From: Ascidiella aspersa
Lineage: Eukaryota
Assembly (NCBI GenBank): GCA_963924565.1
Contig: OZ004612.1
Location: forward strand, 6,882,001-6,946,000
Reading direction: 5' to 3'
Length of the DNA stretch: 64,000 nucleotides
The notes under the pieces were generated by a model. That model saw nothing but the letters and a program-made list of their open reading frames with translations, searched no databases and was not told the DNA's origin. This document shows positions 6,851 to 63,813 of this stretch, in pieces. A program made the translations under genes and the position numbers. Each line of letters opens with the position of its first letter. The first letter of the stretch is position 1.

Positions 6851-7719
6851 CCCGAAACAAAAATCGTAGACTCGCGACTCGTAAGTGCGCATTTCGTATT
6901 TGTGTTTTATGGCTGTTTATTTGCCACACATTTTAACCTGGGCCCGTGCAAATAACGACTCAGACAAACCAGTGAAAAACATAGAGATAACCAACTTAGA
7001 CTAACTTTTAGTTAACCCTTATATAGTTGCAATGTTTAACTCTCTTTAAATGACTATAGTGGCCAACTGTTAGATATCCTTTTACATTTTACCGATAAAC
7101 AATTTGCTGCAATTGCTCCGATAAGGCCTCATACAAAGAAGGCAAGTTGTCACTTTGCTTGTTTATAAATGGAGTCTTCTTGAAATATCAAACGGTAAGG
7201 CAAAATTTATTGAGGAATAAAGTGATTTTCTAGACGTACAAAAGTTGTACTTATATTTTCTATTTGAACTTTGGTATTTCTAGTGTACGTATAATCTAAT
7301 CATACATGGTAGAATCTATATTTTGACTTTGAAGTGCAATTTAAATGGTAACTTTAACTGTACAATTACAAAGCACATTATTCTTTACGTTATTCTAATA
7401 TGTTTGAAAATACGCCATGAGAATGATACTTTCGCCATTTTGTGTCACCACACAACGCATTCAGTCATACACCTGCTGTTGGATTACGTAATCAAATTAG
7501 CAGACGCGCCGCAAGAAATTCTTCATTGATTGCTAAGCGTTTTCCGCATTTTATTTCAGACTCGACGTTTAGTCGCTTGGTCATTTGTTAACATTATTGC
7601 AAAGAGGAAGGTTGGTACGTTTTTCAAGGTAAGTTATCGCTGATTTTAAAACATATAGGTAACAGGATAAACTACTTATTTTGCGTGTGAATTAAACCCG
7701 ACAGTTTCAAGTGTGAGTA

Positions 7720-7910
7720 GCCGCATTGTATATATTTGTCGAAATGGCATGTTTGTCGCGTTATTTAGTTTTGTTTGTCGTTTTGTTGTTTGGTCTTTTG
7801 TGAAAGTGGGACCAAGGGCTGGGTAGGGACTTCCAAGGGTGGTACCGGGTCTCGAGAAATTTCCGGGTGGCATCTTAGACTGGCCCCACTGTGTGAATGG
7901 GAAGCGGTGA
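7720..7910. repeat. Dispersed ~190-bp repeat, copy 1
   Basis: ccaagggctgggtagggacttccaagggtgg...tccgggtggcatcttagactggccccactgtgtgaatgggaa recurs at 13630-13810. Confidence 0.75.
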
Positions 7911-8227
7911 GATTTCTGTGAATATTCAGTATAGTCATTTAAAAGGACGGATTTGTTGTTTTCTACATAATTTGCAAGTCTTTGCTTAATAAGACTCGAA
8001 TCATTTAATTACAATACTGCTCGCATTAACGACTTTGTATTTTATTTCAGGTTCTGGTTGATTGTGAGCGTTAAAACACATGTACCTAAAAAAAATACCT
8101 AAAAAACAATTGGTTCTTTTCAGATAGTCCTGCATTTATGTGAAAAAAGTTAGCCTTATGCTAAATGGACCAAACAGGAATATAGAGTAGTTGAGTAAAA
8201 AAGGGCATGACAATTCTATTTCTTACA

Positions 8228-8640
8228 GAAACTGCTCCATCACCCCTTATGACGAAAGTTAGTTTACAACCTTGAAGGTATGATGTACCATTGTTGGAGA
8301 TAATTTTATTTGTACGAGCGGTAATATAACCAGTTTATTTTGGGCTTCATTCTTCACACGAAAGACGATGAGATGGAGGACATCTACGTTCAACACATCT
8401 GGTAGATGATGAAAGCTATGACAGAGAAAAAGTGCGACCTATTTTATCATCAAATGCAGCATTCTGTTAAAGGTAAGTCAAAGAGTACAATATTTTGATG
8501 TGCTGGCTAACATCAACGCGAGTTAATTGCGACTCCTGTGCTTTTCGTTTTTTTTTTTCAGAGGCAACTTTGGTTTACACTACCAGTCAAAACCTACTGT
8601 GCTTTAAAGTTATCACAATCCTGCTCAGATGGTGGTAGAA
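8228..8640 (+). pseudogene. Decayed spliced exons of an unknown gene family
   Basis: An exon-like piece ends in aaag|gtaagt at ~8472 and reads ...QHIW*MMKAMTEKKCDLFYHQMQHSVK. Homologous pieces occur at ~12200-12345 (VKCDLFCRYMQHAVK) and ~12830-12990; the following intron/acceptor (8490-8561) matches 13020-13085. Confidence 0.4.
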
Positions 8641-8685
8641 ATTAAATTGTTGATGATTGAAAAAGCCTACCGCGCAAGCTAAGAC

Positions 8686-9300
8686 CAGTGCTCCACAACG
8701 GGTGTACCGCGACGTTCCCGGAGGTGTGTTACTTTTTTATTGGTACTTTGTAATAACGAGAACCAACTCGAAAATGGTACGTGTAACCTTATGAACTTTC
8801 AGTAATGTTTCATGTTACCTTCCATCAACTAAAGTCAAATTTCAAACGAGTGTTTTAGGAGTAAACATACAACAATTGTTTTCAAACTTTTCATCAAAGT
8901 AAAACGTTTCATTAATTATCCATATTGCTCAAAAAATTTTATTATTGTAAATGTGATTGTATAAATTAAGGTTGCTGTTTCTAAAAAATAATTAGGATAC
9001 AAAAGACAAAGCAAAATTGTCAAGGTATGCAATTTTAAGAACTTTGGAGCCGGCTTAAGCTAAGGCTATTTTATGACAAAAAAGCGTTAAAAACGCAAAT
9101 TTAGAAGATAAAATAATTTAATTCGTTAAATTTTGGGCGCTTTCGGCGCGTTTAATCTAAATCTCTATTGTTTCGTTGTGGGGTGCTTAGAATATTTGCT
9201 AGTGCTTATTGTAGATCGTCGTATTTGTTTCATAGTTGTGCCACCGAATTGTTTTAATCATGCTGGTGTGCCGCAAGCAAAAAAAGGTTACGGAGCACTG
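8686..9300. mobile_element. Non-autonomous hAT-like DNA transposon (MITE)
   Basis: TIRs cagtgctcc / ggagcactg; flanks gctaagac / gcttagac (7/8 TSD); second family member inverted at 51565-52564. Confidence 0.85.
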
Positions 9301-9639
9301 GCTTAGACGACACTATACGGGATTCGCCGTTAAAAACCCTTTATTGAAAGTTTCTTTATGAACCAGAACTACTTTATGATGTTACTCACCGTCAACTCAC
9401 AATTGTTTACCTTGCTCCAATTTGCTGAATCCCCGAGTTGCCAGAAAAACACCCCTTCATCAATATCACAGTGAGTTTTAATTTTTGATTCATATTATTA
9501 TATAGATGTTACTACCATTATCTCTTCAAGAACGTCCAACCGAGAGTGTCACAAGCTTCGATTGGCATCATCACGTCACCGTGCGGAACCAACATAAGTC
9601 CAGCTGCTTTAAAAAGAAAACAAGTGCTGTATACAAACT

Positions 9640-11110
9640 GAGGCTGTCGCGCGAGCCGATTTCCGGCCGTGGGGTTTGTTTATAGGCCTAACCCCGCTAA
9701 CCCCTTGCCTTACAGGTAACCGTCTTGCGCAAATCAAGGCCCGGCAGGGAGCCTTGCTTGCGTAAAACACGGTCCAACGAGTTGGTGCCGCGAGAAAGAA
9801 CTTGTGTAGTTGTGAGGTTGACCCTTAGGCGCGGCACCATTCCGTAAATATAGGATGCGGCCATTAGCAACCCCCATTTAAAACTGTTAGCGGGATTCCG
9901 GGCAGCCGCCAAGCGCCAAATAGGATCGTTTAGCAAGGAGTGCGGAGCCCGTAAACATTCCCCCGTAAGGTTTGCGATTTAGTTAAGCTTAGGTTCACTG
10001 TGATTGCCTTTAAGATAGAAATGACCTAGAACGTTACTTTGGGTTCCCTACTTGCTTGCGGGAAACGGTGCCTACTATGCTAGATAGGGCCTTGCGCATG
10101 ACAGTCACCGTTGATACAACTCCGCGTTATCAATCCTTTCCAAACATAGTCCTAGGGCATTTGTTTGACTTCTTTGTGAGCCTTTGACCGATCCCCGTAG
10201 ACACTGGTTTTCAACAAAGTTTAGTAGCTCAGCTCTTTGTTAAGAGTGTTTTTTACAGCGTGTCAGCTTAGCACTGCCGCTGTGCGGTAGCTTATTTAGT
10301 TGCAAGTTCTTTTCTTGGCATTTTCACCCACACACAATCACACATAGGCCCCTTTCCACCCCTCCCAGCCCATTGAACAATTGAAAATGCCGGAAAAGAA
10401 ACTCAAAGCGTTGGAAACCAGTTTAATTTGAACGCAATAATTTGTGAAAGTAACGTGGTAAAATCGCGACTAATATATAAAAGAAAATTTGGTTTTCACC
10501 AAGTAAGCTTCCCTCGCGTCCTTTCGACGTGGGACGAGTGTTTACGCCTGCTAGTGCACTCGTCCGGTCATAGGCTTGCCTTTTTTTTTACCTCGACTGC
10601 TTGAGCCAGCATTCTGTTTAGCAGGTACATATTCGCGTTTACCCCACGGTCATGAACGGCGTCGTCGCTTTGCTCTTAAACACAAAATTTACACCCATAA
10701 AAGGGTTCTGTTCCCAACAGATCTATTATAACCTCTGCTAAAGCTTTTGTAGCTCTAAGCAATCGACGAAATCGCGCGGCAGCCTCGCCTTTTATCTTTT
10801 TCTGCATCTCTGCACCTATTTTTGCTTCGCTTAGCAACAGTCAGACGTGGTCCGAGGCGGCGAGTCGTGTGTTCACTTAATTTGCTGCGTTTTTTCGCGT
10901 CTTTTGTTGACTTGTCCGCCTTGGATTGCTAGCGCACATCGGCAGTAGCAAGGTTTCGTGTAAAATTTTCTGCAGACTTCCCAACGAGAGCACATACGCC
11001 AACGAAGAGTAATCGAGTTGCTGAGAGTACGAGTACGATTTATCTGTACGAGTACGCTGGAAATCTCCTTTTTTCTGTTTTTTATCACTTAGTTAGAGAG
11101 GGATTTCGAA
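9640..11110 (+). ncRNA. Candidate long structured RNA / non-coding retroelement body
   Basis: GC-enriched with no credible ORF. Nested helices 9642-48/9901-07, 9693-9701/9886-94, 9720-72 and 9783-92/9830-39; further helices 10274-80/10284-90, 10307-26/10382-400, a three-way junction at 10503-79, and 11060-67/11100-07. The imperfect pairs I checked are mostly G-U on the plus strand. Confidence 0.45.
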
Positions 11111-11344
11111 CTCCAACTTAACCTTTTATATTATTGGTCAAGATAGCTGCACTTCGCTGCTGCCGATTTTAGGATATATTGTGTACTGTGCAAGTAACAA
11201 GCAGGAAGTTTAGGCAGGATAAAACCGTTGCGTACAATCTTAATAGCAATGTTTGACTTCGTAAAACGCGTGACTGTTCAAACAACACTCTTGGTGTTTA
11301 AAATGTGTATTGTGTTTCTTATCTTAATATCTTGCGGCTATTCC

Positions 11345-11485
11345 GGGCCCTGAGGATGGTTTCAAAGCTGCTGCGTTGTTAGATGCTGTTGCCTGAAACG
11401 CAGCGGTTTGGCGTTTTAAGTGGTTTCCAAACTCGGATTTGGCGTCTTAATATGGTTTCCCAAACTCGGTTGGGCGTCCTTAAGA
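11345..11485 (+). ncRNA. Degenerate minimal hammerhead-like motif plus two decayed tandem copies
   Basis: cc-CTGAGGA-tgg (11350-56) ... cct-GAAAC (11395-99)-gcagcg-GTT-tggc, then ~31-bp units tggtttcc(c)aaactcgg(a)tt(t/g)ggcgtc. Confidence 0.35.
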
Positions 11486-11709
11486 GTGAAAGTATGCTTT
11501 TTACGTTTTGCGCAAATAAACTAAAGTTAATGAGCTTGCTGTTTGTTGTTCTAAACATGCGGGGTTGGTGAGTCCGCAAACAAGGATCCTGTACTTTGAA
11601 TTTTTCTTTAATTCCATTAATAGTTTGGGAATGATCAAAACACTCTTGAAAGGCAGACTTCATCCTGGTAATTTCACCAAAGCCCATTGCCCATCCCTAA
11701 AATCGTCAA

Positions 11710-13000
11710 GCCCGTTAAACTAAGGTGGAATTGCCGGATTGGGAAACCCTTGAAAGAGAAATTAATTTGATCTTTAAGTTGCAATTCGACTTCTTAGGCC
11801 AACCTGAATATTGCTTAGGTGGACGCCGCCTTGCATTTCCATGCAAACAGCCCTAAACCTCGCCATGCCCTAAAAAAAGTTTTTTTTCTTGGAATTGCCG
11901 GGCGGGGAATGCCGAGTGATTTTCTTGTTCGACCTATAAGTGGGGTAAATTTTTAATGGGATCAAATAATTTATAAACCCTATTGTAGTATTCACTTATA
12001 ACTAACTCTCGTTGGGAGCTTTTGTTTTTTCATATGTTCCATACGAGTTGGTTACAATGGGCGGAAAGATGATTTCGCATTCGATAATTGAAGTCACCAA
12101 GCTGAATCAAAATGCCTACTAAATTTTGGTAAGATTACTTGTTTGATTGGTGAAACTATCAACGTCTAAACTGCCAAATTTGTACATGTTTGCAGAGGTT
12201 ACATTTGCGCCAAGCTTGTTCTATGCAACACTTCACATGGAAGTTGTCCTCTACGTTTATGGTAGATGAGTAAAGCATATCTCCGACGAGGTAAAGTGCG
12301 ACCTATTTTGTCGCTACATGCAGCATGCTGTTAAATGTACCGTAAGTTAAACGCTGTTGTTATTTTTACGGAATGCTTAGATGCCCATTAAACTAAATTG
12401 GAATTGCCGGATTGGGAAACCTTTGAAAGAAAAATGAACTTTGTTTAAGTTGCAATTGGATTGCTTTGGTCGACCTGAATATCGCTTAGGTGGACGCCGC
12501 CTTGTATTTCCATGCAAACAGTCCTAAACCTCGCCATGCCCTAAAAAAGTTTTTTTTTCTTGGAATTGCCGGGCGGGGAATGCCGAGTGATTTTCTTGGT
12601 TGGACCTGAAGGGCGTAACTTAACTAACTCTTGTTGGGAGCTTTGTTGTTTTTCATATGCGACCAGACTTGGTGTTCATGAGAGGAAAAGATGATTTCTA
12701 TTTCGATTTACCGTGAAGCCACCAAGATTATTCAAAATCCTTACTAAATTTTGGTGAGATACTTGTTTCATTGTGTAGGCTACGCTATTATCAACGTATA
12801 ATTGGCAAATTTGTACATATTTGTAGAGCTTAAATTTGCGCCCAGCCTGTTTTATGCAACACTTTTACTACACTGAGTCAGTCATCTACGTGTACAGTAC
12901 AACCGGTAAATGAGGAAAGCATACATCCGACTAGGTAATGTGCGACCTAGATTTTAGCCAAATACAGCATGTTGGTTGTAAAAGGTTAGTGAAATGATGT
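11710..13000. repeat. Tandem duplication, ~670-bp period
   Basis: 11710-12345 aligns with 12383-12990, e.g. shared ggaattgccggattgggaaacc and cctaaacctcgccatgccctaaaaaaag. Confidence 0.9.
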
Positions 13001-13629
13001 TGTTTTTCACTGAGAATAATTTTTGGATGTGCATTGTAAACATCAATGCGAATTTAAATTACGACAGCTGTGCTTTTTCTTCAGACCCATTTTTTGTATT
13101 CACTGGGATCATTCGAAACTTAAAGTAGATTCAATCCTTGTCAATACGGTGGAAGGAATTTGTTGCAACGATTCTTCAAAATGACTAAAGAACGAATACA
13201 TCGCAAGCTTGGACATCACAATACGGGTTTCTCTATTTTAGAAAAACACATAGGGTTTGTTTTTGTGCAAATTGCATGCTAAATAATGGTTTCAACGCGA
13301 ATTAACGACCGTCAGTTTTTTAAGGTCGAAGAGTTTTGATGTCGTTACTGAAGCTTCATAGAAAATGTTAAACTTTGGTGGTGATCGAAAACTGCTAAAA
13401 TACACTGCTGCTGCTATTTGCCTTGTGGTAAGTTCTTTTTTACAACCTTATAGGCTTTAATAAACCCTTAAAATTGTATTTTTGCAGATGTTTTTTACAC
13501 TTCCGAGTGACGCTGAAACGACGAGAGAGCCATTAATTTTATGCTGTATAGTTTATATGAACGTTTTATTTCCTTATATTTTGGTGGTAAATCTAAACTA
13601 TTTGCAAGATCCGGTGATCTGTGTTTTCT

Positions 13630-13810
13630 GTTGTGCATTTATACGGCTTGGTTTGTTGAATTGTTGTGTTGTGCTTGTTGCTGTTTGGTCTGGTGTGGAA
13701 GTGGAGCCAAGGGTTGGGTAGGGACTTTCCAAGGGTGGCTATTGGGGCTCGCAAGGGATTTATCCGGGTGGCATTGTAGACTGGCTCCATTGTATGAATG
13801 GGAATTGGAA
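13630..13810. repeat. Dispersed ~190-bp repeat, copy 2
   Basis: Homologous to 7720-7910. Confidence 0.75.
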
Positions 13811-14567
13811 AAGTCTATGTATTTGGTGCAACTTTTCTATGTAGGGATTGTGTATAAGTATAGTGTTGGAATACTGTTACTAACATTCCTGTTGATCGGT
13901 GACAATTCATATGTGCGAGGAATAAATCGAACAAAGAAGGTATTAAAAGACGGCCAAACCCAAAATGGAAAAAAAGAGTGATCAATAATTGCAAACGGTG
14001 TGTTGCTATTTATATGAATTTTACAAATCGGCTGATTGTAAAGGTTTTCTTTGTAAATTTTAGCGGTGCCTATAATTTGTGGCACTGTCGCAACCCAGTC
14101 GTCTGCTCCCTGCCGCTAAAATTCTATCACAAATGGCAGATGAGGGATGCATATCCCGTTCTGTAACCTTTTATTCTTATCAAGGTAAGATATATAAACT
14201 CCTTTTGCCTTAGAACTTTTTTAAAGGCTACCTGCATATTGCTAGAGTAATACTCTGCTTTATATGGGTAGGAATATTAAAATATCATTCATGCAGATTT
14301 CCAGTTTTACCGCCGATTGGATTTTGTCACTTCATCACTGCAACTCTTAAGTGCAATTTTCCTGCAATTCCGTTGCATTTCCGCAGTGACATTGTACACA
14401 TCACAAAGTGTATTTTTTTATTTATGTATTGAGTTGGCCAAGTTTTACTGAAAAATTTTGAACGTGAAATATGTTTTACATAACTTTTGCACAATAAAAA
14501 AATGCCTTGTGTTTTTCGGCCAATCTTTAATAGTTTTTCAAAATCCTATCATTTAATCCGGTTGTCA

Positions 14568-17145
14568 CTATTTCAAGCAGAATGTTCTGAGTTCAACAAT
14601 ATTTTCTTGTAAGAGTAGTTTGTTAAGGTTAACAACAATGGCATAAAGCTTTACATTCCTCTGCATCTGTTCACTTCGTTGGTAGCTGAAAGGGTCGGTT
14701 TGACCAAATGGACCGCCAAATACTGGCCCAGATGCAACGCCCATAAGGCCATCCATAGAACTGAAGGCATCTACCGGTCCCCGACTAAATGCCATCATGT
14801 CGAAGAAACCTTCGCGCAGCCAAGACAAAATGGACCACGTCTGTGACCGGATACCCCCTAATTTAAAAAACAAATTCCTAGTTATTGTATATTTAATAGT
14901 AAGTCCGTTTGTTTGGATTTTCCCAGTACAGTGAAATTGCATTTGCTACAACATTCCACTGTATTAAGCATGAAAATTGGTTTCAAAACTGTGATCCAGA
15001 CCTATTAAATTAATTAGACAACACGTGTAGTTTTCTGAAAACTTCGTTAAATTGTCACCTCCTGGATATATCAAATAGCTATCCATACTGATAATACATT
15101 ATATCCGGTTTACTTACGATGTCCAAAAGGCGAGCATCTCATAATGCACTTGAAAAAATTTTAAAACTTATTAAATTTTAGAACTTTAATCGTCGGCATT
15201 ATGTGTTTTGTTGGAGGGCAAGGTTCTGTTGTGGAAACACATACCAAGTTCTAATGCACTTCAAGCACTTTTTCTTATTCATTTGTTCGCTTTCAGTGAG
15301 TGGAGGACACTACAGACCATCGATTCTCGCTTTTTTGATGCATTCCTCCTTTTCCGTACTATTCATTCACGATATTGCCTGTAATAAAAGCAACTTAAGG
15401 TCAAACTGAAAGTAGTATTGTTTTCATTACAATAATTAGGTGTCTGTAATGTGTCGCCACACTGGCCGGTTTTGAATTTAATAATATAAATTTAACATTT
15501 GAAAGTTTTAAAATCATAGGTAAAAAAATGCACAGACGTCCTATGGTAAATACACAGTAAGTCACTTACCACATGCATCTTTCACGCATTTCCTGCATTC
15601 CAGTGTTGCGTTCATGACCCTCATTCTCTGTTCCTTGGGCCTCGGACAGCTATCGCAGTTTTTGTCCTCACGGCTGCAAGAAATCACTCTTGAGAAAATG
15701 CATGATGAAAAAGCGGTGTATTCGACGTCGCGGAAAACCTCTTCCAAATTGTGAAAGCATTCCACCCAGAAATTTACCCACACCACCGCACATAGGGCCA
15801 TGTCTACCAAAAAATAGACCAATTCCACTGGCCATAGGGCCACGTCCACCAGAATATGGAACAATTCCACCTAAAATAGAGACACGTCCACCGGAAAAGG
15901 TTCCAATTCCTTCGGCCATAGGGCCACGTCCACCAGCAAAGGGACGAATTCCACAGGACATAGGGCCATGTCCACCAGAAAAGGGACCAATTCCATATGA
16001 CATAAGGGCCACGTCCACCATAAAAGAGACAAATTGCACCGTACAAATTCTCACCGCATTCTTTAAAATAAATTCTCACCGCATTGACAAATCAGTTTGC
16101 ATGTATAGTGCTTATGCAGTTTGAATGAATTCTTACCGAATCCTTCCTTGACGCATTCCCTGCATTCGTTCCTGGCTGCTTGCATCCCTCGCCTCATTTC
16201 CTCCAAGCTCTTGCAATACTTTAGCGTGACGTAAGTCTTCTTGCACTCACGTGACTTTGCTGAATTCGCATTTGGTCGACCTGTGTTTTAAAAAGTCTCT
16301 CAAATAATGTCTAAATCATATTAATAAGGAGCAAGTGCAATGTTTTTATTATGAGTATTTTATCATGTTTAGGCTAAACAAGGCATACAGTTATACTTGT
16401 TAAATGTGTGATTGCAGTTTATCAGAAAAATTATTGTTGTATAGTGCATATAAATTTATTATATAAAAAGCAATTAGGCTTACCGCCGAAAGGCCCGTTT
16501 CGTCCAACGCCAAATGGAAGTTGATTGTTTCCTGGAAATTGTCTTCCCCTTTGACTTTTTGTACCTGGATAAATATTTTAATGAAAAATTAAAACTTTTT
16601 GCACCTTTCGTACCTATCAACAACAAATAGGAATTAATTATATTATTTTAATACAGATAAACTTTTATTTTGAATAAAAAAAAAAGGAATAGAACAAGTG
16701 TTTGTCTAACGACCCTTTAAAAACCTGTTGTGTTAAATATGTTTAAAATAGTTGAAAGCCGAAAAACACCTGGTCTTCTTCATTGCTTCAAGCAGGATGT
16801 GCAGTTTATAATCCTGTGTCTGTTCTTCAACGGGATGCCGGGACAATAGGAACAATCGGAGAAGGCGTCTTGCACACATTCTTTCCTGTACTTAACGATC
16901 GTGGTAAACGGGTGCATGGATTCTTCGTTCTCCTAAGTTACTGCGACTTCAGCAAAGAGGTACGAAACGCCAGCGTAGCTCTGTGGAATAGAACAAGGTT
17001 GGGCAAGCGGCTGACCATAGCGCGCAAAAAGAAGCGAGTTCAAGTGGACAGCAGCACGACCAACGGCAACAGGGACACAACTGCCCAGTAGACTGGTGAA
17101 AGTTGACTCGATCTGTGATACATGTGTAGAGACGACGGTTTCCAT
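14568..17145 (-). pseudogene. Multi-exon Cys-rich / Gly-Pro-repeat secreted-type protein, disrupted
   Basis: GT-AG exons ~17145-16770, 16564-16484, 16280-16137, 16060-15570, 15378-15245 and 14857-~14600, mostly phase 1. Four modules end in CxxC(V/L/I)(K/R). A signal-like MYHRSSQLSPVYWAVVSLLPLVVLLST starts at 17123. In-frame stops at 16933, 16780 and 15310, and at least 3 frameshifts. Confidence 0.7.
15770..16040 (-). repeat. Coding-type 42-bp tandem repeat (GGRGPM-xxGIGPFS)
   Basis: About six copies of catagggccacgtccacc...aattcc on the plus strand. Confidence 0.85.
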
Positions 17146-19257: not shown

Positions 19258-22200
19258 ATGACAAGACGAAAGATGGCAGGAATACCAATTTTATTCTTGT
19301 TGTTTTTGTCGGAATTTGGAAGTAAAGCAGTTTTAGGACTTGGTGAGTTAAAGTTCTACTGGGTTAAAATGTTTTTTAATCGTTTTAGCACTATGGGTTT
19401 CAACACTCCTAATAAACACAACTGTGAACAAAACGCAACATATTTATTCTATCATAACCTTTATATCTACAAATATCAACTTTTTTTTATTTAGATCGGT
19501 CAGAAGTGTGCAATGGTAGATCGCCAGCAATTGGTAACCGAATATAGTTTTATTAGCTTTGATTTTACATAAAGGCAATGCGTGCCTAAATGATTGATTA
19601 ACTGCAAAACTACTGGTTTAAAGATAATTGTTTTACCACGTGTAAAGCGTAAAAAAATGCAAATATTGTTACAGATGCACCTGAAGAGGCACTAAAATTC
19701 TTTGAGAATCAATCTCTGCTTCATCTTAGCTACTGCCAATGTCAATGTAAGTTTTTGTGGGCTTTATATTTTGTTGCAACCGTATCAAGGTATTGTCAAG
19801 GTCTTTTTAAACAAACTATAACGGAGAAAGTTTAAACCAGCACCGATTAAATGTCGATTAGGCTAGTGTCAAACCACAGAACAAATCAGCATAAAATAGA
19901 CAGTTTGTTTATATTTTTGCTTGCATCGGGTCTTTTTATTTCTCCACTGATTTTAACTAACCTTCTAAAGGAGGGTACTATACACTTACAGGCTGACTAC
20001 TGTTGTTTCACGTGTAACTAGATGTTTTTATCAAAATTACTTGGTCAATACACTCTTCGTTGAACAAAACTTGCTCAGCTAAAAATCGCTTTAGTTTGCA
20101 AGAATACAGTTAAATGAGACTTATCTAATAGCATTGTTTCTTGGAAGCGTTAATTCCCCCCAACGTTGTTAATATAAATTCCAACAGCTATAGTACTGCT
20201 CATCCTTAAAACTTATTACCTGCTTATGTCGCAGCACAATCAACCAACGCTAACGTAACAAAGCTGTTCGCCATCTTTGAAACTTATGAAACACACAACA
20301 CAGCCCAAGCGAAATACCAAAGCCGTGATTCCGAATTGGCCAAACTAGAAAGTTCAGCTGATGGAAGTACACTGAAGTGTCACATTCAAAGGCGACGTTA
20401 TGACTTTGGCTGGTCGATTTCGCCTATAATTGCAATAATATTGCACTGATGAAAATTCCGCGAATAGGGGGTAGAAGCGTTAATAAAATTTGGCTGGACG
20501 AACGATTTCACAATTGAAACAATTCCTGGCAGCAACAGTATTTATAACTTGTTTATGTCGCAGCTCTATCAACCAACGCTAACGTAACAAAGCTATTCGC
20601 CATCTTTGAAATTACTAAATCACACGACATAGCCCAAGCGAAATGCCAAAGCCGGGATTCCGAATTGGCCAAACTAGAAAGTTCAGCTGATGGAAGTACA
20701 CTGAAGTGTCTCATGGATTTGCAAAGTGGAATACACTTCTGGATAGGTGAGTTCAGGACAATAAGACCGAAAACTGAAACATTCGATTTATTAGTTTAAT
20801 ATGAAACGTTATTTGTAAAACTTTAATTATTTTGGAGCAAAATGGTTGAAGTTGTAGAAATACTTTATTAAGAACATTAAGGCAATATAGATATAGGTAG
20901 GCTATCATTTTAAACGTTTCGAATAACTCTTTATTTATTTATTTTTAGCATAATGAAAAGAAGTTTATATATAATGCTATTCTAAGTATATATATATATA
21001 TATATATATATATCAACAGGGTGATATGGCCACCGTACTATCTGACTCCACTTAATCGAAACCAAACAAACTGCCATTGCATTTCAAAGTGCGTACTGTC
21101 AGGTCGCTTAAAGATTTACTGTACATTCGAAAAATTCAGCCATAACTCCGCTTTTAATAAAACAGCTTACAGCGCGGTATTACGCGTCTCGCCAGTAAGG
21201 CGTGCATTTGCTCGACCCACCAGGCAAGGAAAATAGAATCGAGGTGAAATATCTAACACTTTACCAGGCATACACGCTATAATTACAAGCACAAACAGAC
21301 AAGTGTCGATCGCTTTCTACATATACTTCTGATATACTGTTTTAATTATTTCAATGCAGGGTTGAAGTGTGACAATAATGCGATGCAGGGGTGTACGGAT
21401 AAAAGCAGTTATAATTGGATGGACGGTTCTTCCATATCCTGGGGCAACTGGAAAAGTAATCAGCCCGACCATTACAACGAGAAATGCGTTGCAAGCACGT
21501 CTTCTGGGTGGAATAACGCGATATGTTCGACCCCGTTTTATTATTCTTGCTCCAAAGGTATACAGAATAATAGCGCAATGCAACAATATTTAAACACATG
21601 TCATTATAAATCTTTGATGCTACAGATTTGCAATCTACAACAATAACCACAGCAGCTACAACTGCCACAACTAAACCAACAACAACAACAACAACAACAA
21701 CTACGAATACTAAAACAAGACCAACGGCAACACCTACAACTACAACATCAATAACAAGACGTTCGATTGCAGAAACAGCACTATCTACGACTAAAACAAA
21801 AATGGAAACACATACGACGACAACAAGGACATCAACAACAGCAACACCAGCGAAAACAACAATAAAACCTACGACTAGCACAACAACAAGTCCCACAACA
21901 TCCATGAATTCCCCCAGCACAAAAGTTGACACAATTTCACGAGCGACAATGCAATTGACACGCTCAAGTTTATTCGAAACACAAAATGGAACGACATACG
22001 CCATAAGCACAACAACAGAACCAAAGAAACCAGCTCTGGCCGAAACGCAAACAACAGGCGACATTTTTGTTCCAGGTAAGTCAATTTTGTTTCTAACTTC
22101 CGCGCATAATAACGTCCAACGTGAAAAAATACTATTGGCAGAAAAATCGGGTTGAAACGTTTTACTCACTCAACATTCTAGGTCAATGTCAGCTTTGACC

Positions 22201-25183
22201 TTTTTAATCTTAATGTTGCGGAAGCAAATAACATAATATATATTCCACCTAAATAGCGTTCCAAAACGACTTTAAGTTTTCATTATAGATTGGGATCAAA
22301 TCGTGGACGACTGTGCCATTCGTAAGCTACAATTCACCTTGACTGTTAGAGTGTTTATTTATTTTTTAAGTAAATAAGTAAATATTGATTCGGAATGTTT
22401 ACAACAGATACGAAATTATTTTTGAAAATAGTTTGCCCTAGAAAAAATCTCAATATATTAGAGCGGATGTTTTTTTGCCTGTTAAAATATGGCATCAACG
22501 ACAATATTACGCTTTTTTTGTATTTTACGGGTTTGCGAATGGGGATACTTGTATTTCGGAATAATAAATACTATAAAATTTATATGAAGAACAGAGTAAA
22601 TGTTATATACAGAATTCAATCTGACAAGGCTAGCGGCGTCTTTAAACCACGGTCCGTCCATCTCGGACAATATAAACTCGTTCGAAAGCAACCTCAGCAT
22701 GCATCATGAAGGCAATTATTCCTTGCAAAACAACCTTACACAAGTCAGCGTACAAGTTGTGGTGAAACATGTAACCTCAAACGGTGGAACAGTCGAGTCC
22801 GGTTTGGTCGATTTTGGAAAATCCTCTGTAAAAGCTGCCTTTCAGGTTGCCGCTAATTCCAGTGTGGCTATCGTAATGTTTCAAGTGGTCGTTAACAAAT
22901 CAACGCCATGTAAACTTGTCACCACCGATCAATCAAAGCCTAACACGCTTTACGCCGAAGTAAGTCCCCAGCTTTTCATTGGTGTGTCAGGCTACTATAT
23001 CACAACTTATGAAAAGATTATGGGCTCTGTTGCATTTTCGCGGAAAGTTACCGACGATGAACAGAAGTCGCGCCAGGTTTGTGAAAATAATGTAATTTCC
23101 TCGGCTAACCTAGGCTTAGAAAATGTGGAATGGGCTTGCGCTTTCATCGATCAATCTTCCACTTATTCTACCACTGGATGTCGCAGTAAACTAATAGGGG
23201 ATCGGGTCCACTGCGAATGTGATCACCTCACCGTGCTCTCTATTCTGCTTTCAATGAAAACAGCCGCTATATCAAGTGGAGTAAAGGTAAGCGAGTGGCA
23301 ATTCTATAGTTACAGGAATTTTTCCTACGTTGACAATCCTGATAAAACGCATAGAAAAAGTAAATCAAAAACGAATCGGGGATTAAGTTAAATTAATGGT
23401 ACTCTGATGCAATTTTAAGTTTTTAGAGATATTTTTCTTGCTAAATAACTCAAAAATGGATTCCCAAAGACATTGCGATGAACATCGTTCGTTTTTCATT
23501 GGTGAGTAATTGTTCTTTGCTCTTTCAGATCCTCTCGTATGTTTGCGAGTCGATCTCGATCTGCTTCCTCGTGCTCAGCTTCGTTCTATTATTACGTCAT
23601 AAGCGCCAGGTCGCGAGCGACCGGACCCTCATCCAGATCTGCGTCGTCTTCTCCCTCCTGCTCCTCCACGTCGCCAATCTCTTCCAGGATGCAGCGATCC
23701 TCAAAGAAGTCGGATGTGTTTTCCTCTCTGCGAGCATCCACTTCTTCTTACTAGCATCAGGTAAGGTTAAAACGATAGCATGGTCGTCATGTAACGCGTC
23801 CATATGTCGCATTGCCTTTCATCTAATAACTTAAAAATTAACAAATTATATTTTGGAAAAAATAGCAGCAACTAACAGGCATTTACTCTGTTCAAATTCT
23901 CACAGAAATAATGTTTGCACAGAACAATCGTCATGTATTGTCTATACTTAACTTTGTGATAATTACATTTTTATTTCCAGTTTGAAACAAATTTCGTTTT
24001 AATTAAACTTTATAGTACTTGAAAAAATAATTTATCTTTTACTGTTCCGAAATTAGTAGCTTGTCTTTTTGTTGTTTTACAGTTTTCTGGTTTACGATCG
24101 ACGGAGTCCGAATGACAATGGCCATGACGAACCCGATTGGATTTCAGGTCCAAGACTCCCAAAAGCGATCAAAGGTGTTCTTGGTGGTCGGTTGGCTTAT
24201 CGCGGCAATTCTGGTTGGATCGGCGCTCGCCGCAGGTCTTCCCACAGGAAAATATATGAGGGCCAATGCCAACCTCATGACACAGCCAGGAGGAAGCAAA
24301 TTCGACAGATGCTGGCTGGATCCTGACACCAACGTGTTTATTCTCACTGTTATCGTGCCGATCGCGATTTGTCTTGTGGTCAACTTCCTCTTTGCTCTCA
24401 TTGGTTCATTTGTCCTCCTTTCCTCCAGGAAGAAAAAAAAGCGAAGAAGTCCGGGGGAAATGGATCAAGACGCGAAGACGTTTTTCCGCGCCTTCTTTTT
24501 CTTGATGTTGGTTCTTGGAACAACTTGGGTTCTTGGATTTTTTACAGGTAAAATTTGCGCATTTTCAAGAAACAAATTTAAAGACATTACAACACTTTTC
24601 AAAAATAATTATAGGATTTAAAAAAAAATACAATCACTCTGCCTCTTTTGAAGATAATTATACATGTCAACAGCATAAATGCCAGGTAAAATGCAACAAT
24701 GAAAAATATTAAAAAAATTTGCCTTATTATTTGTCTAACCAGATTGTTAATGCTGCGCATAAAAAAATTAAAATAATTCTTTTTAGTACAACATAGCGAT
24801 TTTTAGAACTTTTCAGTATGAAATGCAATTCAAAGACGATCGATGGATTTGTAGCATTTCATGACTTTGTTGCAAACCTAAACATTTTTCTTTCTTTCGC
24901 CACTTTTCTCTTTTTTGTATTTTAAGTAACCTGTAGCATAAATGTTGTTTTTAATTTCAGTCTCTCTAAGCCGTACACAACCTAATAAGTCTAGCGTAAA
25001 ATTGAAGATATTTTTGATCCAGGTCTCGGAGACGAGGGGACGTCAGAAGTGATGACGTACATCCACACGCTGGTGAATGGGCTTCAGGGATTGGCAGTGT
25101 TCTATTGCTACTGCGTCAAGAATGACGTCATTCGCAAGAAAATATCCTGTGTAGGAAAAACTGCCTGGGTTCCAAACCAATAA
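19258..25183 (+). CDS. Adhesion GPCR copy 1: signal peptide - C-type lectin - Thr-rich stalk - GAIN/GPS - 7TM
   Basis: Phase-consistent exons 19258-19342, 19495-19533, 19675-19746, 20564-20746, 21360-21557, 21626-22075, 22613-23286, 23529-23760, 24083-24547, 25023-25183. CTL motifs AQAKC..FWIG, W.DG, QPD, EKCV, WNN; GPS CECDHL/TVLSILL; secretin-like 7TM motifs (CWL, LGTTW, NGLQG). Confidence 0.9.
20235..20449 (+). other. Truncated tandem duplicate of the first C-type lectin exon
   Basis: 20221-20381 is near-identical to 20551-20710, including the acceptor. It has Cys->Tyr, lacks FWIG and the donor, and runs to TGA at 20447. Confidence 0.8.
20987..21013. repeat. (TA)n microsatellite
   Basis: Direct inspection; intronic in copy 1. 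Confidence 0.95.
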
Positions 25184-25462
25184 ACTTCAAGCGTCAATAA
25201 CCTAACCCAGCAAACTTCCCGTACTTAAGATACATCCAAATACAACTGTTTTCTTATCAGCTCTATCCACGTGTATATAGTTTGGCAATTTTCAGCTGTA
25301 AAAATTCGTGTAACAATATTTGCTTGATTTGTTACAACGAGTTAGATTTAAAATTAATCTCTGTATCCTTCCATTTTCTCAACAATCCATTTCTATTATC
25401 GTTTGTCAATTTTCAGCATTGTTATACACAGGTATTTAAAAATGTATATATAGCATTTAGCG

Positions 25463-26519: not shown

Positions 26520-29500
26520 TTGTTTATGGTTTTCAAATAGTCATTTGCTAATAACTATACTCGGTCCAGACGGCAAACGAATTTGCAATTGTTGGAACTT
26601 CTTGTCAGAAAAAGAAATTAATCAAAGCACACTTCCGCGAGCCAAGCGCAACCGTATGGAACTAATTTAGGAAAGCTTTTGTCGAGTGCGGAAACTCTAC
26701 CCTAGTTAACCTTCCCAGGAAAAATTCCTTACCAAACATTGAGTGAATGTAAAATTCAGATTGATCTCCAACCAAAGTATTCCTTCTCCGAACCAAAAAA
26801 GTCCATCGAAGTAAATACGATTTGAAAAGATTTTGGAAGTTTACGATTAACTGTGTCTCAGTTATACTGTACATTTGTATTTAGCTACGGCGACAATTAC
26901 TATTTATTGTCACACAACCACTACTCATGACTATTCAAATCATAGATTACCTGATGTGTCATGGCCAGCTCTGTTTGACCCATCCCAAAGTAAGACCACC
27001 CTGTTCTAAGTAGGCAGTAGATGAATGGATAGAAAACGATATCAGTATAATATGAAATTCATAGAAATTATATTAGTATAAATGAATAAGAACATCATAA
27101 ATATCATTGTAGCAAATGCGTAGATTTACTTTAGGTTTCAATGCTTTTCCAACAAACTATTACGACTTATAATTTATTTATTTATTTTACTTTCTGGAAA
27201 CAACTGTTAGCTGAACGCATTTAAAAGAACCTGGTGAACAGTCGCTTACTCTTGTTGTAATCAGTTGATTTAAGGAACTTAAATCTTTGTTTTCGAATGA
27301 GAATTTAATAAAGTAATTTACGCTAATTGGCTATTTATTTTCATTTCCAAGTCTTACATTTGAAGGTAGGATTGGTTATGGTTTCCATATTCATCTGGCA
27401 ATACTACTCTACCCAGACGGCAAACGAGATGAAATTGAGCCTATCGGAAGTAGGAACTGACAATTCATAAACGCACACTTCCATACGCTAAGCGCAAGCG
27501 TTTGGAACTAATTTAGGATTAATTTTGTCGAGTACGGAAAAGAGTTTCCGTAGAGACTTAGCAGAGTCAACATTCTAAGGAAAAATTGTTAACCAAAAGT
27601 TTAGTGAATGGAAAATTCAGATTGGCCTCTGACGCGAGTTTTCCTTCTTCGAGACAATAAAAACCGTCGAAGTGAATATGACTTAAAAAGATTTTGGAAA
27701 TTTTCCGGGTACCTGTGTCTTCACTTGACGTTTGTATTTAATGGTGTGAAAATCATCATGTCCTATCACACAACTATTACTCATGACGATCCGAATCACA
27801 AATTACCTATGTGTCATGATCAGCTCTGTTTGACCCAATCCCGAACTAAGACCACCCTGTTCTCACTAGGCAATAAGAAAAGGGTGAACGTTCTAGATCG
27901 TTCAGGACAAATTTATTTTTAAATGTATAGAAATGATATAAACAAACAAGAATGTCATAAAATATGAGGTATATCATTGTAGCAAATGTGTAGATTTACT
28001 GTAGTTTTTAATGCGTTTCCGTACAAATTATTACCACATTAATTTATTTTCTCTCCGGGAAACAACTGTTAGCTGAACGCATTTAAACAACCTGGTGAAC
28101 AGTCGCTTACTGTTGTTGTAATCAGTTGATTTTAGGGAACTTAAATCTTTGTTTTCTAATGAGAATTAAATAAAGTAATATACGCTAATTGGCTATTTAT
28201 TTTCATTGCCTTGAATTTGATGGTAGCATTGCTTGTGGTTTCTATTCATCTGTTATTAACTACTCGGCCCAGAAGGCAAAGGAGTTTGAAGTTGTGCCTA
28301 TCACAAATAGGAAATGACAATTAATTGAGGCACAGTTCCATGCTCCAAGCGCAAGCGTTTGGAACTAATTTAGAAAAATTATTGTCCATTGCGGAAATTC
28401 TACACAGCCTTCCCAGGAAAAAAAATCTTTCTTAATTTAGTGAATGTAAAATTCTGATTGACCTCTGACGCGGGCTTTCTTTCTTAGAGTCAATAAAAGC
28501 CATCGAAGTGAATATAACTTGAAAAAAATTTACGGGTACCTGTGTTCCCATTTGACATTTGCATTTAATGGTGTAATAATCATCATGTCCTATCACAAAA
28601 CTATTACTCATGACTATTAGAATCACAGATCACTTGATGTTTCATGATCAGATCTGTTTGACCCATCCCGAAATAAGACCACCCTGTTCTCACTATAGGA
28701 TGGATGTTGTTGCTAAACCTTACAGAAAAGAAAGAACGGTTTAGATCGTCTAGGACAAATTTAGTTTTAAATGTATTGAAGTAATAACAGTATAAATAAA
28801 TAGGAATATCAATAATAAGTATGCCATTGTAGCCAATACGAGCTTTACTTTAGTTTTCAATACTTTTCAGTACACGCTAGTACGACTTGATTTTTTTATT
28901 TTTCTGGAAACAATGGTAAGTTAAACGCACTCATGAATCTGGTGAACAAGCGCTTATTGTTGTTGTACTGAGTTGACTTTGAACAAATTAAAACTTTGTT
29001 TTCAAATGAGAATAGATTTAAGTAATTTGCTCTTTATTTGCCAAGATTTTAATTTGATGGTAGTAATGGTTGTGGTTTCTTGGTCATACCGTAAACGAGT
29101 TTGGAATTGTGCTTCTAAAAATAAACATCTTGTCAGAAATATAGGAACTGACAATTAATAAATGCACACTTCCATGTTCACCGCAGTCGTTTGGAATTAA
29201 CGTAGGAATACTATTGTCGAGTGCGGAGCTCTACACAGCAGAGTCAACCTCCGCAGGAGAAATTCCTAACAAATATTGAGTTAATGTAACGATGTATAAA
29301 AAAATAGTTAAAATTATGTTAAATTTGCTCGAGGCCAAAGGTTCAGCAGTGTTTGGTGTGGGTGTCTTCGGCAACCCACTCTCCAAAAAGCGTTTGTGAG
29401 GCGCAGTATGATTGCATAGAGTATAAGCCCGTCCACCCTGATATTTAGTGCCCACATTCCCACTTTCCCAAAATAAGGCTTGAGGAAATGCGGTGCGGTG

Positions 29501-36700: not shown

Positions 36701-39615
36701 ATTGCTTCGTCAAAGTATGCTTAGGATACGACCCGTGTGTTAGCAATATTTGTTCGGATTGTTTAATATTCAACAAACAGATTATCCCGTTTCCCCATAG
36801 CGTAGCCTATACAAAGTATTAAAAAGCCGTGGGAAAAAAAGTGAAATTTGCTTACTGGTTAAACGCCGTGATTATCAGGATACTTTGCGAACTTTTGTCA
36901 AAATTTGCGTGGGTATTGTAAGAAGCAAATAGTATTTTAACCCGTTTAAATGTGTAAATTATCATTATCATGTTTAACAGAGTTACGACGACCCCCGCGT
37001 GAGATGCGCGCTCATTACTCCGCCTCTTCTCTCATAGAATTTTTTTTCTTGTGGGAGTATATAACTGTTTCTTTCTCTGCTATATGAACCTATATGCCGA
37101 TGGAACAACAAGCCACATAATATAGGGATATTTGTATTGTTAATATTTAAGAAATCATATTTACGTTGTTCGTTTACGACCATATTGCGACATAAAACGA
37201 TTTCAATATAAGACTTGCACCTATTCAACGCCAAACAACGTGCATAATAAAATAAGTATATCTTTGGTTGTAGAAACCGAGAAAGTCTTGAGGTTGCTGG
37301 CCAACATTTCGTCTTCTTACGGCGATGATACCGATTCTTTACAAAAGCTCAATTCATTGGAAAACAACCTGAGGCAACTTTCGAAAGGCAACTATTCCTT
37401 ACAATACAACCTCACAAAAGTTAGCCTACAAGTTGTGGTGAAATATGTCGCCTCAACCGATGGAACAGCCACGTCAGGTTTAGTCAATTTTGATAAATCC
37501 TCGGTAAATGCTAGCTTCCAGAATGCCGGCATTTTTCCAGTGGCCATGATAATGTTTGAAGCCGTTTTTAAAAGCAAATCAACATCTTGCGCTTTTGTCA
37601 AAACTGGTCAACAGGATCCCGGCAAACGTTATGCTGAACTAAGCCCCAAGGTTTTTACCGGCGTGTCTGGATACGATTCAAAAACTGGCGCCAGACTAAT
37701 GGGCTCCGTTGCTTTTTCGCGGAAAGTTAAAAATGCCGAACAGACGTCGCGCGGTATTTGCCAAAACAATGTCATCTCCACGAAAAACCTAGGCTTGGAG
37801 AAAGTTGAATATGCGTGCAGTTTTATCGACGGATCTTCGGCCTATTCTACCGCCGGGTGTCGCAATAAAGTGATAGGCGACCGGGTCTACTGCGAATGTG
37901 ATCACCTCACCGTGTTCTCTATTCTGCTCTCAATGAAAACAAGGGCCATTTCAGTTGGAGTTAAAGTAAGAGATTGTCAATTTATAACATAAATGCATTG
38001 GAACAAAAATTCAGTAATTATACGAACAGATAAAGACATACTTTATGACAGATTTCGCACTAAGTCTTTTATTAGGTTGATTTTGTTAGGAGCAATGAAT
38101 TCCTAGGAACACTTCGACTGATACAACCAATTTAAATAGCAACTTTTGTAAACCATACAAACACAACCCAAAATATTTAATTCTAAATTGCCAATTCCCC
38201 AAACAAACATCACTTCATTCATTTACTTTAGGTCCTCTCGTATATTTGCGAGTCAATCTCGATTTGCTTCCTCGTGCTCAGCTTCGTGCTATTGTTACGT
38301 CATAAGCGCCAAATCGCGAGCGACCGGACCCTTATCCAGCTCTGTGTCGTCTTCTCCATTCTGCTCCTCCACGTCGCCAATCTCCTCCAGGATGCAGCGA
38401 TCCTCGACGAAGTCGGTTGTGTCTTCCTCTCTGCCTGCATCCAGTTCTTCTTACTAGCATCAGGTAAGTTTTAAACGAAAGCATGGTAGTTATATATGAC
38501 GCGTAAACATATTGTATTGCTTTCATCTGGTCAATTATATAAAAGGTAGTTTCTTCAAATTTTGCACAGAACTTAATTATTGTGAAGCTGACCAATACAC
38601 TGTTTAACAGATGTTTTTAAATTTGAGATATTTAAATATTTATTTCCAGTTGAAACAAATTACTTTTAATTAACCTTCAAAACACCTGGGAAAAAAATAT
38701 TTTATCTTTTTCTATTCCTAAATAAGTAGCTTGTCTTTTTGTTGTTTTATTAGTTGTCTGGTTTACGATCGACGGAATCCGAATGACAATGGCCATGACG
38801 AACCCGATTGGATTCCAGGTCCAAGACTCTCAAAAGCGATCCAAGGTGTTCTTGGTGGTCGGTTGGCTCATCCCGGCACTTCTAGTTGGATCAGCGCTCG
38901 CCGCTGGTCTTCCCACAGGAAACTACATGAAGGTCAATATCAATCAAGGGAAACAACAAGCAGGACGCAAATTTGACAGATGCTGGCTGGATCCTGGCAC
39001 CAACATATTTATTGTCACTGTGATCGTGCCGATCGCGATTTGTCTGGTGGTCAACGTTATCTTTGCCCTTATCTGTTCCTGGGTGCTTCTTTCCTCCAGG
39101 AAGAAAAAGAAGCGAAGAAGTCCGGAGGAAATGGATCAAGACGCGAAGACGTTTTTCCGCGCCTTCCTTTTCTTGATGCTGGTTCTTGGAACAACTTGGG
39201 TTCTTGGATTTTTTACAGGTAAAATTTGCAATCAATGGGTTTGTGGCATTCCATGACCTTCAAGTTAAAATTTTACTTTTTCTTTGCGAATTTGTTCTTT
39301 TTGTATTTTAAGTAACCTTTAGCATAAATGTTGTATTTAATTTCAGGTTCTTCAAGCCGTAAATAACCTTATAAATTTAGAGTTTAATTAAAAGCTATTT
39401 TTGATCCAGGTGTCGGCGACGAGGTGACGTCAGAAGTAATGACGTACATCCACACGCTGGTGAACGGGCTTCAGGGATTGGCGGTGTTCTATTGCTACTG
39501 CGTCAAGAATGACGTCATTCGCAAGAAGATATCCTGCGTAGGAAAAACTGCCTGGGTTTCAGGCCAGGAGTCTTCAAGCAACCATAACCTAACCCAGCAA
39601 ACTTCCCGTACTTAG
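30708..39615 (+). CDS. Adhesion GPCR copy 2: signal peptide - VWA domain - short Thr-rich stalk - GAIN/GPS - 7TM
   Basis: Exons 30708-30768, 31005-31173, 32766-32931, 33332-33429, 33735-33925, 34252-34428, 37274-37965, 38232-38463, 38754-39218, 39410-39615 join in phase. VWA motifs DILYVVDSSGS, QVGILQYG, KILILITD, VYAVGVG; GPS CECDHL/TVFSILL. Small extra exons cannot be excluded. Confidence 0.88.
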
Positions 39616-63700: not shown

Positions 63701-63813
63701 AACTTGTTGATTGCTCTGACAACTATGGTTGTGGGGGAGGCCACCCGACCAAATGCTTTGAATACGCTAAAAACGGCTTAGCTTGTGATGATTACTACCC
63801 CTACACGGGTAAG
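60722..63813 (+). CDS. Papain-family (C1A) cathepsin L-like cysteine protease, partial
   Basis: Exons 60722-60781 (WESWKQEH), 61669-61805 (I29 propeptide, HN..YDQG..SY.LGMNKF), 62855-63028 (LPESVDYR...[12 protein letters not shown]) and 63637-63813 ([19 protein letters not shown]). The signal-peptide exon is unresolved; the catalytic His/Asn exons lie beyond the window. Confidence 0.9.
60937..61417. mobile_element. MITE in cathepsin intron
   Basis: Ends cagcggttcc / agaaccactg; flanks cttcatac / tttgatag (5/8). Confidence 0.6.
61445..61499 (+). mobile_element. Possible tRNA-derived SINE head (degenerate)
   Basis: A-box-like gccggtagagcg and B-box-like gagttcaaatc at tRNA-like spacing; no complete cloverleaf. 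Confidence 0.3.

Follow-up and report, generated by a model that had tools for sequence, protein, structure and literature searches.

Does a 1.5-kb segment of animal DNA that lacks a long reading frame and appears to fold densely on one strand encode a structured RNA, and if so, of which kind? The segment lies in a 64-kb window, that is, the whole stretch of DNA analysed, and all positions below are counted within this window (position 1 is its first letter). A first-pass annotation made from the letters alone had described it as ORF-less and rich in plus-strand-specific RNA structure, had recognised no known family, and had suggested an undescribed structured lncRNA, a retroelement or retrozyme body, or an IRES-like viral relic. 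We find that the fold at 9640-10787 is real, unusually large and stable, and belongs to a diverged multi-copy family. The unit is assignable to none of the known RNA or mobile-element families tested.

The window is gene-poor, with a GC content of ~36%, against 48% in the region of the unit (9640-10787). Adhesion GPCR exons (GPS and 7tm_2 Pfam matches above the cut-off in 3 of the 18 ORFs tested) and a cathepsin L-like exon identify the genome as that of an animal. The adhesion-GPCR genes form three paralogs (21257-25250, 37144-39637 and 48894-51184; two plus, one inverted) that contain GPS, 7tm_2, a mucin-like stalk and a lectin-like exon, and the exons of the cathepsin L-like gene (62858-63812) give a protein match of ~50% identity. 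Repeats include three diverged tandem copies of a ~850-bp non-coding unit at 26584-29080, a 42-bp tandem array of 6 copies with frames open on both strands at 15783-16039, and a 33-bp array of 2.5 copies at 11404-11483, shortly downstream of the unit. The described lack of reading frames was borne out: within 9640-11170, no ATG ORF exceeds 36 codons on the plus strand or 55 codons on the minus strand.

Global fold, strand preference and unit boundaries

Folding of the whole region yields a terminal helix, P1, of 16 bp (9639-9654 with 10772-10787; 2 G-U pairs; probability 0.97; -32.7 kcal/mol), which encloses a nested multi-domain fold of ~1150 nt (9640-10787; Table 1). P1 is the most stable ungapped helix within 9600-11150. 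The helices nested inside it have pairing probabilities of 0.92-0.99, and G-U pairs account for 24 of the 225 high-probability pairs. Compared with shuffled sequences, the plus strand of 9640-10790 has a z-score of -5.2, with 0 of 22 shuffles equally stable, as against -2.9 for the minus strand (22 shuffles). When the terminal helix is removed, the interior still gives z -5.5 on the plus strand (14 shuffles), so a terminal inverted repeat alone is an insufficient explanation. After regression on G and C content, the unit lies 6.2 sd below 53 other tiles of the same size, and tiles that overlap it only in part are less extreme. With sliding windows of 150 nt, only 4 of 51 on the plus strand fall below z -2; the signal is patchy since most of it is long-range.

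Table 1. Coordinates of predicted structural features and of the flanking elements
Feature	Position	Strand	Remarks
Promoter-like triad	9561..9615	+	sequence
Reversed CCAAT box	9561-9565	+	-79 from 9640
CRE/E-box-like TCACGTCA	9571-9578	+	-69 from 9640
TATA-like TTTAAAAA	9608-9615	+	-32 from 9640
P1 5' strand; putative RNA 5' end ~9640	9639..9654	+	pairs with 10772-10787
Core helix 5' strands	9655..9675	+	9655-9658/10657-10660 (0.99); 9665-9675/10641-10651 (0.98)
Domain A	9693..9894	+	closed by 9693-9701/9886-9894
Domain A long interrupted hairpin	9719-9773	+	predicted fold
Domain A three-way junction		+	closed by perfect 10-bp helix 9783-9792/9830-9839, ending CCA
Variable arm B	9962..10062	+	weak fold, z -0.3; replaced in other copies
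Domain C/D	10079..10622	+	probabilities 0.92-0.99
Domain C/D helices	10079-10089/10612-10622, 10102-10106/10595-10599	+	
Domain C/D helices	10176-10189/10566-10579, 10203-10215/10410-10422	+	
Domain C/D hairpins	10141-10167, 10515-10531, 10532-10565	+	
Domain C/D unpaired U9	10581-10589	+	
Stem with 55-nt single-stranded C/A-rich loop (10327-10381)	10305..10403	+	
Stem helix in C-rich arm	10317-10326/10382-10391	+	within 0.92-0.99 probability set
Domain E, small multibranch adjoining P1	10662..10769	+	z -2.9
Domain E helices	10662-10667/10764-10769, 10670-10674/10758-10762	+	
P1 3' strand 10772-10787, then U4 and U5 runs	10772..10801	+	possible short-form 3' end
Possible second domain, may extend unit to 11167	10847..11167	+	RNA membership uncertain
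Second-domain hairpin	10847-10929	+	
Second-domain closing helix	10938-10954/11151-11167	+	-25.6 kcal/mol

All local elements named in the first-pass annotation are found in the sequence, and each beats shuffles when excised alone: the interrupted hairpin (9715-9775, z -3.4), the domain of the perfect 10-bp helix (9775-9850, z -3.6) and the helix around the C-rich loop (10300-10410, z -3.2). The proposed multibranch domain also stands alone (9636-9915, z -3.1, 0 of 200 shuffles as good), but its closure at 9901-9907 does not, since the whole-region fold pairs the ggctgtc 5' strand preferentially with 10772-10787. Likewise, the three-way junction holds by itself (10495-10595, z -4.1), but its closing strand pairs with 10176-10189 (0.97-0.99). 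As all these small windows were chosen for their folding, their z-scores are inflated. In the modelled fold, both local closures are the weaker options and would arise before the long-range helices as the RNA is made. Of the ~1.5 kb originally delimited, 9640-10787 is strongly folded, and 10790-11115 is no better than shuffles (z -1.0). The true ends of the unit, its repeat nature and the upstream promoter-like triad had not been seen at that stage.

Strand specificity was upheld in part. Relative to shuffles, the plus strand is favoured for the unit, for the interior (minus z -1.7) and for 10170-10585 (z -6.2 plus, -1.7 minus). In raw energy the two strands are near equal (-385.0 plus vs -377.8 minus for the unit; -346.6 vs -347.3 for the interior), and 9690-9897 is symmetric (z -4.6 plus, -5.0 minus). 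For the statement that imperfect pairs are mostly G-U, a strand-neutral count gave 8 G.T vs 4 A.C, a difference that is not significant (p = 0.39). With DNA energies, the plus strand is not favoured, and the minus strand comes out slightly more stable (-179 vs -185). Taken together, the strand comparisons make RNA-level folding of the plus strand the likely case.

How robust the fold is to sequence decay was estimated by simulation, with the present copy used as the ancestor. Random mutation at 5% broke a mean of 8.7 of the 124 core pairs, raised the energy to -359 and took away about half of the excess stability; two or fewer core pairs were broken in 0.6% of 20000 trials. As the fold is intact in a copy that differs by 10-20% from its nearest listed paralogs, either selection on structure or recent activity of the lineage is suggested.

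Beyond P1, the possible second domain has a z-score of only -1.3 overall, and paralog contigs join again at 11137. Part of it, 10926-10949, can instead form a duplex with 10271-10292 (-35.0 kcal/mol; 17 of 19 Watson-Crick, a match equalled in 1 of 150 shuffles). A local hairpin at 10274-10290 is worth -10.4, and the cost of forming the duplex about equals the gain. The model thus permits a possible two-state switch, in which this duplex and two local helices would be nearly isoenergetic. Within the same stretch, 11027-11055 forms a hairpin from a direct repeat, with a symmetric GA/GA internal loop and probabilities of 0.87-0.95.

Upstream of the unit, 9561-9615 contains CCAAT-, CRE- and TATA-like elements of putative promoter function. 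These motifs were defined after the site had been seen; on both strands of the 64 kb, two sites have the triad at this loose spacing, one of them being the site of the unit. The other site, at 59085-59178, has nothing evident downstream.

The termini of the unit are inverted (14 of 15 letters match, 9640-9654 / 10772-10786), and the flanks AAACT and GCCTT have nothing in common, so that no target-site duplication (TSD) is seen. With the filter applied, TG..CA ends with a 4-6-bp TSD were not found for left ends in 9300-9700 and right ends in 10560-11500, and beyond 16 bp the best local alignments for inverted or direct terminal repeats were no better than shuffles. T4, T6 and T9 runs occur inside the unit, including U6 at 10249 and U9 at 10581, and an ATG at 10652 opens just 29 codons.

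Several repeats surround the unit. A hAT-like MITE lies at 8686-9300, 340 nt upstream; its ends (8685-8699/9287-9301) are inverted, and its 8-bp TSD contains one mismatch. Many contigs have loose ends at 8682-8862 and 9264-9300, and a partial copy is present at 51565-51738. Two G-rich blocks, 7783-7903 and 13678-13804, are 82% alike and of high summed depth. The minus strand of the former reads as a frame rich in Pro and Gly, which is interrupted in the latter, and the hairpins at 7795 and 13690 fold no better than shuffles. A tandem duplicate, 11710-12364 / 12383-13007 (also 8400-8475), is 73% alike overall and 93% alike over 155 nt; its ends look like splice sites, and depth is high at 11703-11939. 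No intact frame was found in 11710-13007, which from its sequence may be a degenerate multicopy gene or a non-coding host gene.

The copy family

Copies were examined through contigs of two sequencing runs of one study (X1 and X2), aligned to 7200-14300 at 80% likeness. In both runs, the contigs cover 30 of 30 bins and show allele bubbles at half depth, on which grounds X1 and X2 are read as probable genomic DNA. Among sequencing runs containing the stretch, no RNA run was listed, a result that has no bearing on expression. Over 9570-10517, the contigs sum to a depth of 662-774 (X1) and 718-1439 (X2), and by our own calibration a single diploid locus has a depth of ~64 in X1 (from 6 contigs) and ~105 in X2 (from 2 contigs). 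Taken as a rough copy measure rather than a true copy number, the depth peaks at 10172 and 10328 correspond to 28-35 copies per haploid genome in both runs, and the range is about 25-35 when the peak at 9656 in X1 is included. The peaks adjoin core helices, and linkers and peripheral hairpins reach only ~1-6. The check on copy number proposed in the first-pass annotation has thus turned up a repeat family, likely one of roughly 30 diverged copies per haploid genome as judged from contig depth.

More solid than the summed depth are three observations: there are 8-10 distinct contigs at 9656 and at 10172, single contigs reach ~8-16 times the diploid depth, and the nearest paralog pieces, among those listed, are 80-90% alike. 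Subfamilies of ~8-16 near-identical copies would fit a recent mobile burst equally well as a tandem array. No second copy of the unit was found within the window. In X2, contigs of the locus itself have a depth of ~50 across 7200-14300, vs 98-111 for single-copy paralog contigs; the locus is at half depth, as though carried by one haplotype only.

Differences between copies were read from the 40 of 756 substitutions, 12 of 232 indels, 15 of 51 joints and 12 of 354 loose ends that were listed. Two paralogs have a different arm B, with joints in both runs that coincide with the predicted arm ends (9960->10062 and 9963->10056); at 9960->10062, 101 letters are exchanged for 109 different ones. Further joints, 10214->10381 and 10427->10547, fit arm ends poorly. 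For the unit, 11 indels are listed, of which six lie within the C-rich loop and five touch helices. Among the 9 listed unit substitutions, two keep a pair as G-U, one adds a pair, two are unpaired and four break a predicted pair, the partner site lying outside the listing; none of the nine forms a compensatory pair. At 9656, where the best fold already pairs C9656 with G10659, the dominant family allele T9656 still pairs, as U-G. Domain A differs among copies, since insertions at 9697-9701 and 9824 are present in family contigs of high depth.

Both flanks are shared with at least one paralog (9411, 9421->9596, 11030->11137), and one or two paralogs are alike upstream to ~9330 and downstream to ~11170. 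Because the depth at 9411 and 11174 implies that the flanks are common to only 1-2 paralogs, most copies may be without the promoter-like triad.

Relatives were also sought in public DNA collections, which contain almost no animal genomes. Pattern scans gave 0 exact matches in viral contigs and metagenomes and 1 match in prokaryote genomes, and blastn against phages gave no match. A looser pattern matched 68 loci in viral contigs. All 69 loci were rejected, none having an alignment to the region better than E 0.37; the 6 of 69 checked had neither an Rfam match nor a tRNA, and one locus read in detail lies inside phage ORFs. Separately, a group of phage contigs (L003, L006, L010, L011, L025, L030, L038, L053; ~1501-1565) shares an inverted pair of 9 bp around an interior that pairs with itself and varies. 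It sits inside a predicted ORF and is unrelated to the unit at 9640-10787.

Comparison with known RNA families

As in the first-pass annotation, no known family is recognised. An Rfam scan at gathering score gave 0 matches in the entire 64 kb, a scan of 9300-11400 with Rfam 15 at E up to 10 gave only two chance-level matches (E 3.7 and 7.5), and ARAGORN found 0 genes in 64 kb. Among the titles and abstract openings listed in searches of an open-access library, none described such an RNA family. By eye, parts of the unit resemble motifs of SRP helix 8 (9736-9752), twister (10267-10277), the group I S element (10143-10151) and the ends of Y or vault RNA; these candidates were dropped, as each lacks its partner motifs and has no Rfam match.

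With 7SK RNA the unit shares ends brought together in a closed fold, a U-rich stretch thereafter, upstream promoter-like elements and alternative pairings. It differs in being about three times longer (fly 7SK is 444 nt) and in carrying U6 and U9 runs internally, and no Rfam match to 7SK was obtained. Published 7SK features include GAUC repeats within the 5' stem and another stem, on the 3' side, ahead of the U tail (PMC8406779); the unit does not show them, having no repeated GAUC in a 5' hairpin and GATC only at 9924, 10190 and 10720.

A likeness to telomerase RNA is seen in size, in a long-range P1-like closure followed by a second domain, and in variable arms on a conserved core. Moreover, CCTAACCC at 9687-9694 is an 8-nt match to a TTAGGG-type template downstream of a long-range helix. 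Against this, the match overlaps the 9-bp helix 9693-9701, leaving no room for P2, and other copies carry insertions at 9697-9701, directly beside it. For a P2b/P3 pseudoknot, only one helix of at least 6 bp was found between unpaired regions (-6.7 kcal/mol), distant from the template, and the box H-like AGAGTA at 11024 has no ACA past the following hairpins. Fungal telomerase RNAs measure 900-2425 nt, a range that includes the unit, and the animal type is built as T-PK/CR4-5/H-ACA (PMC8480181); for tunicates, it is reported that telomerase RNA was not found in one genome (PMC8704543). A single-copy telomerase RNA was dropped on account of the multi-copy family and the missing pseudoknot, and a highly derived telomerase RNA with paralogs, which would use CCTAACCC as its template, is also very unlikely with ~30 copies.

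Transcription by RNA polymerase III was considered in several forms. A type 3 gene would have a PSE plus TATA and no run of four or more T before its end; the unit has a TATA-like element at -32 and a match of 7/19, counted by eye, to the PSE of U6 (sequence from PMC1790723), and T4, T6 and T9 runs lie inside it, so that it fails as such a gene. For a product ending at the T6 of the family (10170-10175), the T4-free stretch before 10208 is by our estimate not clearly beyond chance, and this candidate was rejected; a short product may end at 10175-10254. A SINE or tRNA-derived element would carry internal A and B boxes and a tRNA-like head; there is no B box on either strand and no plus-strand A box, with 0 ARAGORN hits.

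The suggestion of a retrozyme body is not sustained. Like retrozymes, the unit is ORF-less, strongly self-paired and multi-copy, whereas it has none of their hammerhead cores, tandem 150-450-bp monomers or LTRs. No hammerhead CUGANGA motif occurs on either strand of the unit (the nearest is at 11350), Rfam gives no ribozyme match, and neither LTRs nor tandem monomers of 150-450 bp were found at the unit. Retrozymes are described as a plant LTR type and a metazoan non-LTR type with 150-450-bp monomers (PMC7229834).

GOLLD, ROOL and OLE are large structured RNAs of bacteria and phages. They share with the unit a large, multi-domain architecture without a reading frame; the unit differs in lying in an animal genome, in forming a multi-copy family and in having no Rfam match.

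Proposed scaffold RNA genes, rival readings and significance

We give a probability of roughly 40% to the reading that the unit belongs to a multicopy family of genes encoding a scaffold RNA not described before. It retains the lncRNA suggestion of the first-pass annotation as the leading one, strengthened by the long-range closure, the stability and a multi-copy family with a swapped arm. What is observed is a stable fold, a repeat family, no long ORF, and no mobile-element hallmark except the 15-bp inverted ends. RNA polymerase II would start at ~9640 from the CCAAT/CRE/TATA-like triad, polymerase III being unlikely for the full unit because of the internal U6 (10249) and U9 (10581) runs, and transcription would yield a stable non-coding RNA with paired ends, ~1150 nt or perhaps 1530 nt long. 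In its folding, long-range helices would come to replace the local hairpins that arise first. Exonucleases would presumably be kept from both ends by the 16-bp end helix, the conserved core would keep a fixed shape, and the exchangeable arms, C-rich loop and U-rich linkers would offer protein-binding sites, as in 7SK and the long fungal telomerase RNAs. By this analogy, a scaffold role for proteins is likely. Many copies would supply an abundant RNA, like snRNA genes, and the U1, U2 and U6 snRNA genes of tunicates are likewise multicopy, with 21-46 copies (PMC8704543).

The scaffold-RNA reading is favoured by the shuffle and tile statistics of the unit and interior, by a plus strand that gains nothing when folded as DNA, by depth peaks at core helices in multi-copy contigs, by the exchange of arm B at its predicted ends and by a fold that is intact despite 10-20% divergence. 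Flanks common to the unit and at least one paralog are what DNA-level gene duplication would give, and the triad occurs at only two sites in the window. Points on the other side are the missing compensatory pairs, with 4 of the 9 listed substitutions breaking a pair, the 5 of 11 listed indels that touch helices, the two joints off arm ends, the near-equal raw strand energies and non-significant G.T vs A.C count, the copies that may be without the triad, and the subfamilies that fit a mobile burst equally well.

The main rival, somewhat improbable by itself, is a non-autonomous mobile element that would travel as folded RNA and borrow a reverse transcriptase, the fold acting as packaging and priming signal; the retroelement suggestion survives to this extent, but no TSD, LTR pair or TG..CA end was found. 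A TGG sequence at 9783, which we liken to a tRNA-His primer site, would be masked by the CCA-ending mimic 9830-9839 and could self-prime if cut, and a high-depth contig retains this helix to 9841 and differs beyond. Near-identical subfamilies alongside divergent singletons, and folding of both strands, agree with such an element. DIRS elements offer a parallel: they lack a TSD and have an internal complementary region (PMC8969392), and two segments near the 3' side of 9640-11167 are complementary to its putative termini, 10772-10786 to the 5' one and 10938-10954 to the 3' one, which is the DIRS order. The unit differs from them in having no ORFs and no inverted or direct terminal repeats beyond 16 bp, and in that the complementary segments are 151 nt apart; the best local alignments for inverted terminal or split direct repeats were no better than shuffles. 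A poly(A) tail and a hammerhead core are also missing, the promoter-like signals lie outside the unit, and 9640 and 10787 are absent among the 12 of 354 loose ends listed. Were the unit a DNA transposon, with 9640-9654/10772-10786 as 15-bp TIRs and inner folding incidental or serving a single-stranded DNA step, the multi-copy state, the 14/15 match and a length near the MITE range (PMC8969392) would be explained; the lack of a TSD, when the hAT-like MITE nearby retains one of 8 bp, the interior z of -5.5 without the ends and paralog homology past both ends make this unlikely.

Slightly less probable than a DNA transposon is a structured UTR or intron that would act in cis in a multicopy coding or host gene, such as the degenerate repeat on either side (7783-8475, 11710-13804). 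Neighbouring blocks do have similar summed depth and are duplicated in the window, but the second neighbouring unit is without the structured element, no coding frame is linked, and two equally deep blocks are MITE ends. Lower still we place an RNA virus or satellite RNA of which a non-coding part was endogenised, with panhandle ends, an IRES-like C-rich loop and a pyrimidine tract. Both strands start with nearly identical 15 letters, like replicon panhandles, and the C-rich loop and U9 tract are followed by the ATG at 10652; these 29 codons are no downstream viral ORF, the phage and viral collections searched hold no homolog, and shared flanks and many diverged copies are unexpected for a one-off relic, so the IRES-like interpretation loses ground. 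The derived telomerase RNA discussed above ranks just below it. Chance folding of a GC-richer island would suit the composition and the less extreme partial tiles, but it is already largely refuted and close to negligible: no shuffle was as stable, 6.2 sd remain after composition correction, and two inverted matches of the observed strength were found together in 0 of 150 shuffles.

Each known family tested fails a defining feature, and the standing of the unit as a new kind is provisional. If it is a mobile element instead, it would be RNA-borne, without TSD, LTR or hammerhead, and likewise undescribed in the literature passages seen. To our knowledge, few animal non-coding RNAs of >1 kb adopt an overall fold that is compact and ribozyme-like. 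Returning to the scaffold-RNA reading, it is possible, if rather doubtful, that the family represents a new type of animal ncRNA, very large, abundant and multicopy, in the form of a closed particle of 1.1-1.5 kb with a conserved core, paralog-specific interchangeable arms and a near-isoenergetic switch, as a counterpart of the giant bacterial and phage RNAs. If the unit is transcribed, the fold could readily be solved by covariation across the ~30 diverged copies, and the exchanged arms would suggest paralog-specific partners or guides.
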